The notes beneath the pieces were generated by a model, which worked only from the letters and a program-made list of their open reading frames with translations, was not told the origin of the DNA and made no database searches. Both the position numbers and the translations under genes were made by a program. DNA of 64,000 bases. It comes from Verrucomicrobiota bacterium. GTDB lineage: Bacteria > Verrucomicrobiota > Verrucomicrobiia > Limisphaerales > SXTU01. Positions 8,561-22,878 of this stretch are shown one piece after another. The stretch's first letter is position 1, and the number at the start of each line of letters is the position of its first letter. The stretch covers positions 4,325 to 68,324 of the forward strand of contig JBDKJY010000034.1 in the NCBI GenBank assembly GCA_039796295.1, written 5' to 3'.

Positions 8561-8635
8561 GCGTGGTTAGCTCAGTGGTAGAGCACTACCTTGACACGGT
8601 AGGGGTCGCAGGTTCGAACCCTGCACCGCGCACCA
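8561..8635 (+). tRNA. tRNA-Val (anticodon GAC)
   Basis: Hand-folded cloverleaf. Acceptor GCGTGGT/ACCGCGC, D-arm GCTC..GAGC, anticodon arm CTACC-TTGACAC-GGTAG, T-arm GCAGG-TTCGAAC-CCTGC, discriminator A and an encoded CCA. Confidence 0.9.
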
Positions 8636-8834
8636 TGCCTTCCAGTTCCTTCTGTAGTTTCTTCGTCTTCGTGTTGAGCGCCTGTTCTAGCCGCTCTTCC
8701 AAGACTTCGTTGATTAGCTCCGAGACGTTGATTCCGACGCGGCTGGCAGCGGCTAGGCGCTGCTCGTTTGTAGGCCACGCAACGAAGGAACGGTATTTGT
8801 AGCGGGACTTGGTGGGGGTGCTTTTGGTTTTCAT
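8586..8834 (-). CDS. Ribbon-helix-helix (Arc/CopG-like) DNA-binding protein; last 16 codons and stop are antisense to the tRNA
   Basis: MKTKSTPTKSRYKYRSFVAWPTNEQRLAAASRVGINVSELINEVLEERLEQ..MVRGAGFEPATPTVSR*. This uses the internal ATG of ORF 8586..8927. The RHH pattern is a strand followed by two helices. Confidence 0.6.
   Translation of the reverse strand: MKTKSTPTKSRYKYRSFVAWPTNEQRLAAASRVGINVSELINEVLEERLEQALNTKTKKLQKELEGMVRGAGFEPATPTVSR
8591..8636 (+). repeat. attL core (3' half of tRNA-Val)
   Basis: ttgacacggtaggggtcgcaggttcgaaccctgcaccgcgcaccat, identical to 22833..22878. Confidence 0.9.
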
Positions 8835-8856
8835 TCGGGTGCAGGATAGCACGGTT

Positions 8857-8901
8857 TCAAGATATATCAAGATTCCGCTTGCCGTGCGTTGATGTGTTGA
8901 T
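8857..8901. promoter_or_regulatory. Candidate operator/promoter region of the divergent RHH and early operon
   Basis: AT-rich 80-nt divergent intergenic region. TCAAGAT direct repeats at 8857 and 8867 (10-bp phasing). GTTGAT repeats at 8888 and 8896. Confidence 0.35.
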
Positions 8902-8914
8902 AACATCCCAACAG

Positions 8915-9163
8915 ATGAACGAACCACTCCCCAATCCCCAACGGCGGCTGACCTCTTTGGAATTGTCAGCCCCGGCGCGTCGCACGCTTGGCGTCTTAAA
9001 GAAGAGCTTCGGCATGAGCTACACCCACGCGGTGCAGTCCGGCTTGCAGCTGCTCTTGGCCCACTACGGCCTCGGCGAGGCCATGCCCGCCGGGGACCGC
9101 AAGGCCCTCGGCCTCACCACCGGCCCCCGCCCCGGCAACCGCAAGAAAGGGGTGGCCAAGTGA
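8915..9163 (+). CDS. Small hypothetical protein, possibly RHH-like
   Basis: MNEPLPNPQRRLTSLELSAPARRTLGVLKKSFGMSYTHAVQSGLQLLLAHYG.. First gene of the rightward early operon. Confidence 0.45.
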   Translation: MNEPLPNPQRRLTSLELSAPARRTLGVLKKSFGMSYTHAVQSGLQLLLAHYGLGEAMPAGDRKALGLTTGPRPGNRKKGVAK

Positions 9164-9369
9164 GTGCTGATGCCCAGACCCGCAAGCAGCGCGACCGCTG
9201 CATTGAACTCTACACCGTCGCCCGCCGCGCACTTGAGTCGCTCAGTGAAGAGCGGCTGAACCTTTGTTTTGAAGCGCGGGAGTCGCTTAACGAATGCCGG
9301 GGAGAGTTGGAACGCTTCGACTCGCACCGCATGGCGCAACCGGTGATTCGGGAAGGCGGTGCCCAGTGA
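9160..9369 (+). CDS. Hypothetical early protein
   Basis: 69 aa. GTG start overlaps the preceding stop (GTGA). Helical and charged. Confidence 0.4.
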   Translation: MSADAQTRKQRDRCIELYTVARRALESLSEERLNLCFEARESLNECRGELERFDSHRMAQPVIREGGAQ

Positions 9370-9569
9370 AGCGCTCCTTTGTCGTCACGCTCGACGCTCA
9401 GTTCGTGCCCGAGGACGAAGCCACGGGGCAGCAAACGGAGGCCGCGCGCGAGGTTGTGCGCGTTGCCGTTCAACGCGCCATGCCCCACGGCGTCCACGTC
9501 ACCGTCACGGAGAATCGCGGGCTGCCGCTCCATCCCTTCAACCCTCAGCCCGCCCCGCGACATGGTTGA
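9366..9569 (+). CDS. Hypothetical early protein
   Basis: GTG at 9366 overlaps the preceding TGA: VKRSFVVTLDAQFVPEDEATGQQTEAAREVV.. Lies within track ORF 9294..9569. Confidence 0.4.
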   Translation: MKRSFVVTLDAQFVPEDEATGQQTEAAREVVRVAVQRAMPHGVHVTVTENRGLPLHPFNPQPAPRHG

Positions 9570-9867
9570 ACAAACTGTCTTGTTCCCCGGCCTCCCGCTC
9601 CCTGCCGTGCGCGGGGAGTCCGTCATCACGAACCGTCACGGGCGAACGGTTTACAAGACGAAGGCCAAAGGCTACGCGCGTCCTCCCGGCACTGGCCCGG
9701 CGGGCGAGAAGTGCAAGACGTGTGACCATTGCTGGCGGGTCGAAGGCGGCAGCAAGTTTTTCTTCAAGTGCGACGTGATCCAGTTCCGCTGGACCCACGG
9801 CCCCGGCACCGACATCAAGGCCAACTCTCCGGCGTGTGAACTGTGGGCCAAAGCGAAGACACCATGA
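9562..9867 (+). CDS. Hypothetical Cys-rich (zinc-binding-like) early protein
   Basis: MVEQTVLFPGL..GEKCKTCDHCWRVEGGSKFFFKCD..ACELW. ATG overlaps the previous stop. Confidence 0.5.
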   Translation: MVEQTVLFPGLPLPAVRGESVITNRHGRTVYKTKAKGYARPPGTGPAGEKCKTCDHCWRVEGGSKFFFKCDVIQFRWTHGPGTDIKANSPACELWAKAKTP

Positions 9868-21710: not shown

Positions 21711-21771
21711 CCCCACCTCCCCCGCGCGACTCATTACCGCGCGGCTCCTCACAGTCTTCGTCACAGTTCTC

Positions 21772-21812
21772 CCCCGCCCGCCTTGGTCACAAGACGGGCG
21801 GGGTTTTGCTTT
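21772..21812. terminator. Bidirectional terminator between the late operon and the integrase
   Basis: ccccgcccg-(14 nt)-cgggcgggg followed by TTTTGCTTT. The flanking genes converge. Confidence 0.65.
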
Positions 21813-21818
21813 CCTACC

Positions 21819-22712
21819 TCAACTCTCCACCCGCCAAAACTCCGCGCACTCCGCCTCCTTCACCGGCTGGTGATAGTGCGAAAGCAGGATGGCCGAAGAG
21901 TTCCCTAGCATCGTCGCCACCTTCCCCGCGTCACCGTGCAACGCCAGCAAGTAACTCGCCGCCGTGTGCCGGAGCAGGTCCGACGGCCAGCCCGTCAACC
22001 CCAAGGCCCGCGCCGCGACACGCTTGAACCGGCGCACCGTCGAATTGCTGGGCGACACCTTCCCCGAGCGCAGCGGACACGCCGCCAGCAAGGCCACCGC
22101 CTTCGCGTGCAACGGCACGATGCGCCGCCGCCGCGTCTTCGCCTCGCTCACCGTCAACGTCTTCGTTTCCAAGCACACTTGCCGCCAATCCAGTTTCAGC
22201 AGCTCCGCCGGGCGCACCCCCACGAACAAGCCGAGGATCACGTAAGGCCGCAACACCGTCGGCGCGAGCTTCAGTAGCGCCTGTGCTTGCGCCGGCGAGA
22301 GCACGAACGGCGCAACCCGGTCAATCGTCACACGCTCCAAGCGGTCGCAGGGATTCTTGGCGAGGTAGTCACGGCGCACGCAGAAGGCGAAGAGCGTCGA
22401 GACACGGTTCAGCCAAGTCGCCCGCGAGTTGGGATTCTTGAACTGGGCAAGGAACTCCTCCACCTCCGCCGTCGTCACCGTGTCCACCGTGCGCCCCTCG
22501 CGCCCCTTGGCGAACCGGGCGAGATACCCGGCGAGCGACTTCAAGTAAACGGGCCGCAGATTCGCCGCCCGCTTCGCTTCAAGCAGCCGCGCGATCGCGA
22601 CTTCCAACGGCACGGCGTCGCCGAAGCCGGCCAGTGTCGGGTGACACTGGCGATACCGCTGCGAAAGCTCCGAAAGCAGACACCGCTTGAACTCCTGGCA
22701 CTGGGGGAACAT
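21819..22712 (-). CDS. Tyrosine recombinase/integrase
   Basis: 297 aa. Catalytic pattern ..GVRPAEL.. (R), LLRHTAAS (HxxR), GNSSAILLSHY (H..Y). Adjacent to attR. Confidence 0.9.
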   Translation of the reverse strand: MFPQCQEFKRCLLSELSQRYRQCHPTLAGFGDAVPLEVAIARLLEAKRAANLRPVYLKSLAGYLARFAKGREGRTVDTVTTAEVEEFLAQFKNPNSRATWLNRVSTLFAFCVRRDYLAKNPCDRLERVTIDRVAPFVLSPAQAQALLKLAPTVLRPYVILGLFVGVRPAELLKLDWRQVCLETKTLTVSEAKTRRRRIVPLHAKAVALLAACPLRSGKVSPSNSTVRRFKRVAARALGLTGWPSDLLRHTAASYLLALHGDAGKVATMLGNSSAILLSHYHQPVKEAECAEFWRVES

Positions 22713-22773
22713 GGACTTTTACTACCAGTCCCGCCGACGAAGGAACAGCGGTCAAGGCCAGAGCTGCGGGGGC

Positions 22774-22824
22774 TGGTGCGTGGTGGAGGGATCGAACCTC
22801 CGACCTATACCGTGTCAACGTAGG
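22774..22824 (-). other. Inverted, diverged 3' half of a different tRNA-Val(GAC) gene (fragment)
   Basis: Its reverse complement, cctacgttgacacggtataggtcggaggttcgatccctccaccacgcacca, aligns to the host tRNA 3' half with about 7 mismatches. These include compensatory T-stem changes (GGAGG/CCTCC against GCAGG/CCTGC). Confidence 0.75.
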
Positions 22825-22832
22825 GGCCAACT

Positions 22833-22878
22833 TTGACACGGTAGGGGTCGCAGGTTCGAACCCTGCACCGCGCACCAT
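22833..22878 (+). repeat. attR core (duplicate of the tRNA-Val 3' half)
   Basis: Identical to 8591..8636. Confidence 0.9.

Follow-up and report, generated by a model that had tools for sequence, protein, structure and literature searches.

What kind of element has inserted itself into the tRNA-Val(GAC) gene of a Verrucomicrobiota contig, and is it a virus at all? The window analyzed here is a stretch of 64,000 nucleotides (contig JBDKJY010000034.1 of assembly GCA_039796295.1, positions 4,325 to 68,324 of the forward strand), to which all coordinates refer. A preliminary description, made from the letters alone, had proposed an integrative element with phage-like genes between two exact attachment (att) repeats. 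Our analysis supports that interpretation and makes it more specific. With a probability that we put at about 0.85, the insert is an integrated temperate virus, tailless and icosahedral, with an internal membrane and a double-jelly-roll (DJR) capsid protein of the PM2/Vinavirales type, rather than a tailed phage or a generic island. Its host is a member of the Verrucomicrobiota, probably of the Limisphaerales. The identification rests on two hallmark proteins, the capsid protein g17 and the packaging ATPase g13. Below we take up the ends of the insert and its virion genes, the readings that compete with ours, a regulator gene that spans the att core, and the place of the element among known viruses.

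Ends of the insert, capsid and packaging genes

The features on which the identification draws are the following.

8561..8635, plus strand: tRNA-Val(GAC) gene called by ARAGORN, intact, with the CCA as part of the gene; attL junction in the 3′ half
8591..8636, plus strand: attL core, a 46-bp exact repeat
14288..14962, plus strand: g13, a 224-residue FtsK/HerA-type genome-packaging ATPase, homologous to PM2 P9
15966..16094, plus strand: g16, a 42-residue protein with one predicted membrane helix (hydropathy), in the position of PM2 P7
16132..17076, plus strand: g17, a 314-residue major capsid protein, predicted to be a PM2 P2-like double jelly roll (AlphaFold2 and Foldseek)
17129..18355, plus strand: g18 to g22, five proteins of 78, 98, 85, 49 and 70 residues (hydropathy scan)
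18352..18939, plus strand: g23, candidate vertex protein (by position)
18936..19778, plus strand: g24, lectin-like candidate spike or receptor-binding protein (profile matches)
19782..21710, plus strand: g25 to g28 (gene map, hydropathy)
21819..22712, minus strand: g29, a 297-residue XerC/D-like tyrosine recombinase (integrase) without an arm-binding domain
22833..22878, plus strand: attR core, the second exact 46-bp copy

The tRNA-Val(GAC) gene is the only tRNA gene that ARAGORN finds in the window. The 46-mer TTGACACGG...GCACCAT occurs there exactly twice (8591..8636 and 22833..22878). A third copy is absent from the window even when up to 3 mismatches are allowed, and none of 100 dinucleotide-preserving shuffles gave a match with 3 mismatches tolerated (0 expected). 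The preliminary description had equated this repeat with the end of the tRNA. Its two exact copies stand, with a slight adjustment of its extent: it covers the final 45 nt of the tRNA, beginning at the first anticodon-loop base and ending with the CCA, and 1 further nt downstream. Beyond its left edge, weaker similarity adds 13 nt (92% over 59 nt). The two cores bound an insert of 14.2 kb (8637..22832), and the locus has the form of a tRNA-integrating temperate element: direct repeats, one of which is the 3′ part of an intact tRNA gene. The G+C content was also considered as a boundary signal and was rejected, as the insert (0.60–0.70) is the same as the flanks. Two points do not fit the claim that the insert is phage-like and unlike its flanks: the G+C content is equal, and the first ~385 bp of the right flank are the remnant of a related element.

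The map of 29 genes (g01 to g29) was derived from a scan of codon usage and of G+C at third codon positions (GC3). It agrees with independent calls on L086 (L numbers are our labels for the loci compared), a copy of the element from another sequencing run, which is 100% identical over g01 to g18 and ends inside the core at 8607. The map has three blocks: lysogeny and early genes, packaging and structural genes in PM2 order, and a PIN toxin-antitoxin pair on the opposite strand. All 29 open reading frames (ORFs) are open and show tight start/stop coupling. The ATGA/GTGA start-stop overlaps pointed out earlier are confirmed as 4-base overlaps at 9160, 9864, 10438, 11986, 15363, 18352, 18936, 20081 and 20691.

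The AlphaFold2 model of g17, built on a 12-sequence alignment, has a predicted local distance difference test score (pLDDT) of 83 and a predicted template-modeling score (pTM) of 0.83. Its best PDB match by Foldseek is the PM2 major capsid protein P2 (2vvf_A; E 4.4e-16, template-modeling score 0.79 on the target), and the next matches are exclusively DJR capsid proteins, of PBCV-1, STIV, iridoviruses and PRD1. On its predicted structure, g17 would be a DJR capsid protein of the PM2 P2 type. One homolog, P0009, passes the Pfam P2_C cut-off, and Pfam P2_C/P2_N are seen in members of the family. The family is small: 12 word-level relatives among 5.8 billion proteins, and 50 clusters by hidden Markov model among 1.84 billion representatives. 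A pattern scan of GTDB representative genomes and IMG/VR found no capsid relatives, a scan of IMG/VR with the ATPase gave no match, and neither protein matched any of 50,697 GenBank phage records by tblastn.

The ATPase can be recognized from its sequence. Aligned to PM2 P9 by hhalign, g13 gives a probability of 96.8% and an E value of 2.2e-10 over 146 columns, and it also matches phrog_2666. Its AlphaFold2 model (pLDDT 93.8) finds, among the 16 top Foldseek matches, 15 chains of the STIV/STIV2 packaging NTPase B204 (E 1.8e-12). The protein is a packaging ATPase of the FtsK/HerA superfamily, homologous to PM2 P9.

Around these two genes lies a series of membrane proteins, scored by the presence of a hydrophobic 19-mer (Kyte-Doolittle at least 1.7). 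One such 19-mer is found in each of g16, g18 to g22 and g26, and four in g28. The five proteins g18 to g22 have one predicted membrane helix each, at or near the C-terminus, and are conserved in L002, L083 and L084; they are candidates for internal virion membrane proteins. The helix of g26 (147 residues; 54–61% identity in relatives) is also C-terminal, and g28 (339 residues) combines a lipoprotein-like signal peptide with three membrane helices, which together account for its four 19-mers. We infer from this an internal membrane in the virion and, likewise, the roles of the individual small genes. A spike role for g24 is suggested by its matches to phrog_10356, a virion structural protein (E 1.7e-16), and to Laminin_G_3 (E 0.003), which has a concanavalin-like lectin fold. 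For g23 there is no detectable similarity to PM2 gp j or P1, its profile matches nothing among PDB sequences, and a word-based homolog search returns only itself. As single-jelly-roll penton or spike proteins, g23 and g24 are candidates by position.

The block runs from g12 and the ATPase through a membrane protein of ~40 residues, the capsid protein and the small membrane proteins to the vertex and spike candidates and further membrane proteins. This is the order of the annotated PM2 record, interrupted here by the opposite-strand toxin-antitoxin pair. The capsid, packaging and membrane-protein module in PM2 order makes up 40% of the element.

The integrase g29 matches Pfam Phage_integrase (E 1.3e-10) and the PHROG 1 integrase profile (E 1.5e-30), and starts 120 nt from the right repeat, which a tyrosine integrase had earlier been remarked to abut. 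Alignment with E. coli XerD shows that Arg-I, Lys, Arg-II and Tyr are retained, so that a tyrosine recombinase with the catalytic Arg...Arg...Tyr lies beside an att site. The locus is then what the preliminary description took it for, an integrative element in tRNA-Val(GAC): a phage-like, integrase-bearing insertion in the 3′ half of the tRNA.

Integration of tyrosine-recombinase elements into tRNA genes is well established, and our reading of the mechanism draws on it. The attP of the circular viral DNA would be a copy of the 3′ 45 nt of the host tRNA-Val(GAC). The XerC/D-like recombinase would exchange strands in the anticodon loop or close to it, where the identity has its left edge. In attB the anticodon loop is flanked by the symmetric stem sequences CTACC and GGTAG. 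At attL the tRNA would be rebuilt from the host 5′ half and the phage 3′ half, and at attR the displaced host 3′ half would be left beside the integrase gene. Williams is said to have distinguished, in 2002, sublocation classes of tRNA-targeting tyrosine-integrase elements, one of them with crossover in the anticodon loop. The present element resembles this class in its identity block, which extends from the anticodon loop to the 3′ end, in the restoration of the tRNA at attL, and in an integrase that adjoins one att site. It differs in that the integrase is short, XerC/D-like and without an arm-binding domain, and in that an extra inverted tRNA half lies beside the core.

Points against the identification and rival readings

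Several results weigh against an intact virus of the PM2 type. At the sequence level the similarity of g17 to PM2 P2 is not significant (hhalign E 0.033), and the capsid fold is a prediction from an alignment of 12 sequences. No penton protein could be identified. Profile scans of the element proteins gave no match to a rolling-circle initiator (HUH Rep) and detected no lysin. In the integrase, alignment with XerD shows His-II replaced by Asp (SDLLRH) and His-III by Asn (LGNSS). For the copy in the window, no attP or attB junction was recovered, the contigs from other runs breaking in or near the repeat. Nor was an empty site found in the closest metagenome-assembled genomes (MAGs), where tRNA-Val is not beside the symporter and DUF6941 genes that flank it here.

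The search for the empty site scanned genome contigs for the flanking symporter and covered 80 loci, the closest at 83–96% identity. These closest loci have only the symporter and, mostly, the DUF6941 gene in common with the window, with no tRNA-Val nearby. Exact-protein look-ups with the flanking DUF6941 gene and the capsid gene led to short contigs that end in or near the repeat, and an exact search of IMG/VR and JGI metagenomes for the double-core att junction found none. The segment with the DUF6941 and symporter genes (window 7652..8560) is syntenic in most of the closest MAGs; the tRNA-Val gene and everything rightward are not. Relative to its neighbors, the tRNA locus is rearranged. Upstream of the tRNA, the DNA common to the window and L089, which holds a different prophage, amounts to 49 nt only.

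Could the insert then be a prophage of this virus type that is cryptic or defective, integrated in the past, now without excision or particles, and kept for its toxin-antitoxin pair or methylase or simply not yet decayed? The missing excision junctions and lysin, and the substitution of both integrase histidines, would fit such a state, and the site demonstrably holds a decayed relative. The same doubt has been raised for the Vinavirales associated with Verrucomicrobia (Yutin et al., 2022; PMC9502842). Decay, on the other hand, has not reached the att repeats, which match in 46 of 46 bases, or any of the 29 coupled ORFs. The Asp and Asn substitutions are common to six related integrases, three of which come with clean repeats or an attP-type junction; the integrases of L001 and L083 keep a His at the second position. 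The argument from the lysin is also weakened by PM2 itself, which is not known to have a classical lysin. We regard a defective prophage as unlikely, and the prophage may well be inducible at present.

The two other readings dispute the virus type itself. A small P-loop ATPase (224 residues) among at least six short one-helix proteins, conceivable as coat proteins, on 14 kb of DNA, prompted us to consider a filamentous, inovirus-like prophage. The 51-nt inverted repeat at attR, which folds strongly as single-stranded DNA (ssDNA), fits as well, as hairpin att sites are found in CTX-type phages. This reading was rejected on the folds of the two hallmark proteins: the fold of the ATPase is that of B204 and its homology is to PM2 P9 rather than to Zot/pI, and a 314-residue DJR capsid protein is encoded. 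Moreover, the profile scans found no rolling-circle initiator, ssDNA-binding protein or Zot match, and the element integrates into a tRNA, not dif, and encodes an integrase for it. Of the marks of the Inoviridae, the Zot/pI ATPase and the rolling-circle initiator are absent, and an icosahedral capsid protein, which these viruses do not have, is present. We hold an inovirus to be extremely improbable. A non-viral integrative element (a genomic island, an integrative plasmid or a satellite) with a few phage-like genes would account for the integrase, toxin-antitoxin pair, methylase and helicase, and for the fact that most genes have no family match in the profile scans. It would leave unexplained a full capsid, packaging and membrane-protein module in PM2 order on 40% of the element, and relatives that carry the same self-contained gene set on contigs of 12–17 kb. 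Conjugation and mobilization genes are absent. This too we consider very improbable. The reading that we retain is a temperate virus of the PM2/Vinavirales type.

The putative g01 regulator, the inverted tRNA half and the remnant at attR

Given such a virus, how is its lysogeny controlled? The features that bear on this question lie at the two ends of the insert and just beyond its right end. The preliminary description had overlooked three points here: the core within g01, the inverted tRNA half and the remnant.

8586..8834, minus strand: g01, an 82-residue ribbon-helix-helix (RHH)-like putative regulator (weak RHH matches)
22774..22818, minus strand: 3′ half (45 nt) of a different tRNA-Val(GAC) in inverted orientation, anticodon loop (TTGACAC) through CCA
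22879..23263, no strand assigned: decayed remnant of an earlier related prophage, ~385 bp to the right of attR
22879..~23005: in the remnant, an RHH pseudogene homologous to g01, directly after the core
23008..23087: in the remnant, the end of g12 (last 80 nt)
23093..23108 and 23160..23175: in the remnant, the arms of a ~95-bp hairpin insert
23182..23213: in the remnant, the start of the ATPase gene (first 32 nt)
23218..23263: in the remnant, 46 nt with the motif upstream of the capsid operon

The RHH matches of g01 are weak but consistent, CcdA being matched by four of four homologs. The gene has a promoter-like site upstream (8870 to 8843, minus strand), is divergent from the early genes and reads in the direction of the integrase. 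The tRNA 3′ half (the att core), in reverse complement, supplies the last 17 codons of g01 (MVRGAGFEPATPTVSR), and the TAG stop is contributed by the anticodon stem, in the host part of the tRNA. As the core lies inside the 3′ end of g01, integration shortens the g01 protein. By reconstruction of the junctions, the protein has 82 residues when integrated and 165 when episomal; the corresponding lengths are 74 and 132 in L110, and 81 and at least 313 in L089, where the ORF runs in frame into the integrase. In L111, a real attP-type contig, a 126-residue ORF crosses a tRNA-Gly core, and L093 shows the geometry of the truncated regulator, again on tRNA-Gly. The C-terminal extensions of the long forms are not conserved: they end in ...DRAAA in the window element, ...YCPMP in L110 and ...PVRLH in L111, and no degradation tag is evident in them beyond the ...RAAA of the window element. 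From the gene map, regulator and integrase are co-oriented and adjacent across attP, with the early operon divergent; the L111 contig shows this layout directly.

A comparable arrangement is known from mycobacteriophages. In BPs and in phages of clusters G, I, N and P, the integrase gene is preceded by the repressor gene, which contains attP (Broussard et al., 2013; PMC4557955), and in BPs only the truncated, prophage form of the repressor is stable and active (PMC4557955). The present element has in common with BPs the co-oriented regulator and integrase genes, adjacent in the circular form, the divergent early genes, the attP core inside the regulator ORF, and a prophage form shorter than the viral one (82 vs. 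165 residues here, 103 vs. 136 in BPs). Unlike BPs, a siphovirus, it would be a tailless DJR virus, and its regulator, a putative repressor, is RHH-like. A functional analogy to the integration-dependent immunity of the BPs type is conceivable, if doubtful.

The att region of the present element is further complicated by the inverted tRNA half. It separates the integrase start from attR, and 14 nt remain between it and the attR core (window 22774..22832 as far as the core). Compared with the core, its T-stem has a compensated change (GGAGG/CCTCC vs. GCAGG/CCTGC), and its acceptor strand reads ACCACGC. Together with the attR core it makes a 51-nt imperfect palindrome with a strong fold as ssDNA. 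The same inverted fragment is present in L089 (18186..18244). In L099 and L100, whose integrase is 70% identical, the place is taken by a tRNA-Val(CAC)-like half with a different acceptor stem (L099 ~12805..12865), while L002, L110 and L111, of the same integrase clade, have no inverted tRNA half. In L001 and L083, which have distant integrase modules, and in the unrelated L151, a functional-looking tRNA fragment is in the same orientation, its CCA end beside the integrase start. The source tRNA of the inverted half was not found among 149 fetched loci. The inverted half could be left over from an attP that was swapped, could function as a second attP, or could serve attP as a structural element.

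These observations lead us to propose, tentatively, an integration-dependent switch for this family. Only the integrated genome would make the short regulator (74–82 residues), and only the circular genome would link the regulator promoter to the integrase; in one sub-lineage, the inverted tRNA-Val half would be a working part of attP, as an alternative core or as structure, and not a relic. We consider this proposal, taken as a whole, to be possible, with the odds against it.

The remnant to the right of attR indicates that the site was occupied before, the present prophage having entered the attL of an older copy. A comparable remnant lies right of attR in L089 (18292..18441), an unrelated contig, and in both remnants the internal deletion ends at the same motif, GTGTAKTARCCGGGCAGTCGGCGGACA. 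The intact copy of this motif is at window 15861..15887, and the host flanks of the window and of L089 differ. The ~95-bp insert in the remnant is absent from the intact element. It carries a 16-nt perfect inverted repeat (AACCACCGAGGCACAG / CTGTGCCTCGGTGGTT; 23093..23175) and could be a small hairpin element.

Remaining genes, relatives and place among known viruses

The early and non-structural genes of the element are as follows.

8879..10671, plus strand: g02 to g07, early genes divergent from g01 (codon-bias scan, identical calls in L086), at 8879-9163, 9160-9369, 9562-9867, 9864-10160, 10163-10441 and 10438-10671
10664..11989, plus strand: g08, a 441-residue putative replicative helicase/NTPase with a DUF5906 domain
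11986..12666, plus strand: g09, a 226-residue Dam-like N6-adenine DNA methyltransferase
12720..13100, plus strand: g10, a doubtful ORF of 126 residues with a low codon score and no gene call there in L086
13110..13430, plus strand: g11, no family match
13480..14295, plus strand: g12, an Ala/Pro-rich protein, no family match
14959..15366, minus strand: g14, PIN-domain toxin (Pfam PIN E 8.7e-6)
15363..15587, minus strand: g15, antitoxin (faint phd match)
15588..15965, no strand assigned: intergenic region upstream of the structural genes, with GGGAAC repeats and the motif GTGTAGTAGCCGGGCAGTCGGCGGACA
PIN pair in relatives: L001 3348..3979; L083 2094..2779; L084 2831..3456; L089 9640..10313; L093 10631..11298

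Among the early genes, the one at 10163-10441 encodes a helix-turn-helix protein that is excisionase- or regulator-like (HTH_28; phrog_66 excisionase/regulator, E 1.2e-4). The match of g08 to Pfam DUF5906 (E 0.0015) is below the family cut-off; its homologs in L093 and L111 match DUF5906 strongly. The methyltransferase matches Pfam MethyltransfD12 (E 3.4e-7) and phrog_56 (E 2e-29); its translation contains EPFCGAA and DPPY, the EPFxGxG and DPPY motifs being intact. In relatives, tblastn places g12 always before the ATPase gene. The PIN toxin-antitoxin pair is found on the opposite strand, between the ATPase gene and the capsid operon, in every examined relative that covers the region, and in L089 there is another PIN pair besides. 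Ahead of the structural operon, the intergenic region contains about 4 tandem GGGAAC hexamers (15707..15732) and, at 15861-15887, the motif GTGTAGTAGCCGGGCAGTCGGCGGACA.

The relatives have a common backbone of regulators, helicase, g12, ATPase, toxin-antitoxin pair, a protein of ~40 residues, capsid protein, membrane proteins and integrase, and the same self-contained gene set is carried on contigs of 12–17 kb. In L089 an identical tRNA-Val(GAC) is occupied by a different prophage, whose capsid protein has 301 residues and whose helicase is of the DnaB type; the exact repeat there measures 47 bp, and the DNA identity of the integrase/att module is 88.6%. L110 is also in tRNA-Val(GAC), with a 55-nt repeat that starts at the same tRNA position. 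L093 lies beside tRNA-Gly(GCC), where no repeat of the 3′ part of that tRNA was found. L001 is a contig of 15,407 bp with a 30-nt overlap between its two ends, which is what a circular path would leave in a k=31 assembly. L111 runs from the late genes and the integrase to the 3′ half of a tRNA-Gly, without the full tRNA, and on to the RHH gene, early genes, ATPase and capsid; this is a junction of the attP type, whether of an episome or of a tandem array. Insertions in tRNA-Val and tRNA-Gly, together with circular or attP-type contigs, show that the family is mobile and targets the stretch of tRNA genes from the anticodon loop to the 3′ end. It should be noted that L099 and L100 (JGI Ga0255188_1000427 and Ga0255204_1000431) are the same element with a 6.4-kb block (late genes, integrase, att core) in opposite orientation; a short sequence in common may have made the assembly ambiguous, or the inversion may be real.

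The same target appears to be used elsewhere. The identical 45-nt 3′ half of tRNA-Val(GAC) lies internally in two unrelated phage contigs of 31–32 kb from IMG/VR (L151 1948..1992 and L152 1003..1047). In L151, the one of the two that was annotated, a different integrase of 375 residues adjoins the tRNA fragment, and a cell-wall hydrolase is nearby. The attB in tRNA-Val therefore appears to be a landing site common to different phage types.

As to the host, the flanking symporter is 83–96% identical to proteins of Limisphaerales/Verrucomicrobiota MAGs, and ATPase homologs are named from MAGs of the same groups, which suggests that the host is probably a member of the Limisphaerales, in the Verrucomicrobiota. 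Five GTDB contigs with a symporter 67–96% identical (L003, L005, L008, L036 and L061) are titled, for example, Akkermansia muciniphila or uncultured Klebsiella. Such titles are at odds with a content that is high in G+C and Limisphaerales-like, and the MAGs are probably mislabeled.

How close is the element to PM2? The element and this Pseudoalteromonas phage of the Corticoviridae have in common a DJR capsid protein (predicted here), a P9-type ATPase and the gene order from the ATPase to the spike region. PM2-like prophages of aquatic bacteria have been known since 2007 (Krupovic and Bamford, 2007; PMC1950889), and with PM2 and these prophages the element also shares a small genome, the prophage state, and replication and integration modules that can be swapped. 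It differs from PM2 in a capsid protein without significant sequence similarity (314 residues vs. 269), in a PIN toxin-antitoxin pair between the ATPase and capsid genes, in having its own tyrosine integrase and a tRNA target, in genome size (14.2 kb vs. 10.1 kb) and in the host phylum (Verrucomicrobiota vs. Gammaproteobacteria). It also has a DUF5906 helicase in place of the rolling-circle Rep P12, and the regulators P13–P16 are absent. Corticoviridae in the strict sense have a P12-like Rep, P13–P16 and circular double-stranded DNA genomes of ~10 kb; here the replication gene is DUF5906 helicase-like and the element is integrated at 14.2 kb, its relative L001 being the 15.4-kb contig with the terminal overlap. 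Since homologs of the rolling-circle Rep and of P13–P16 are missing, the element is not to be filed in the Corticoviridae itself: it is not a corticovirus in the strict sense.

Two other sets of prophages are closer in some respects. Vinavirales prophages from human-gut metagenomes have been assigned to Verrucomicrobia (Yutin et al., 2022; PMC9502842). The present element is of the same virus order and host phylum, and like them has no recognizable lysin or P15/P16 regulators; unlike these gut prophages, it and its relatives come from environmental, high-G+C, Limisphaerales-like genomes. The int-type DJR prophages of Vibrio have their own tyrosine integrase, target dusA and other protein-coding loci, and are said never to be in tandem (PMC12715192). 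The integrase at one end, a repressor (putative here), and short inverted repeats around the att core are found in both, whereas the target here is a tRNA, from the anticodon loop to the 3′ end, and the remnant of an earlier occupant lies beside the intact copy. For such viruses we have found no description of a target at the anticodon loop of a tRNA with the att core within an RHH gene, of a toxin-antitoxin pair conserved in the structural region, or of an inverted second tRNA half at attP.

In sum, the virus is of a known kind, in a barely sampled lineage with a very small capsid family, from environmental Verrucomicrobiota without cultured phage. Much less has been learned about tailless, membrane-containing phages than about tailed ones, and no cultured phage is known for the Limisphaerales or for most environmental Verrucomicrobiota. 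With exact ends, a defined attachment site and a host lineage that can be named, this complete and apparently intact genome is a starting point for induction work and for linking hosts and viruses in soil and freshwater metagenomes. As BLAST against all deposited phages does not detect the capsid family, such elements are likely to escape standard prophage finders. Finally, if the switch formed by a regulator across attP is real, integration-dependent immunity would reach beyond the actinobacterial siphoviruses into an unrelated virus realm, which would argue for a simple and recurrent solution to the control of lysogeny.

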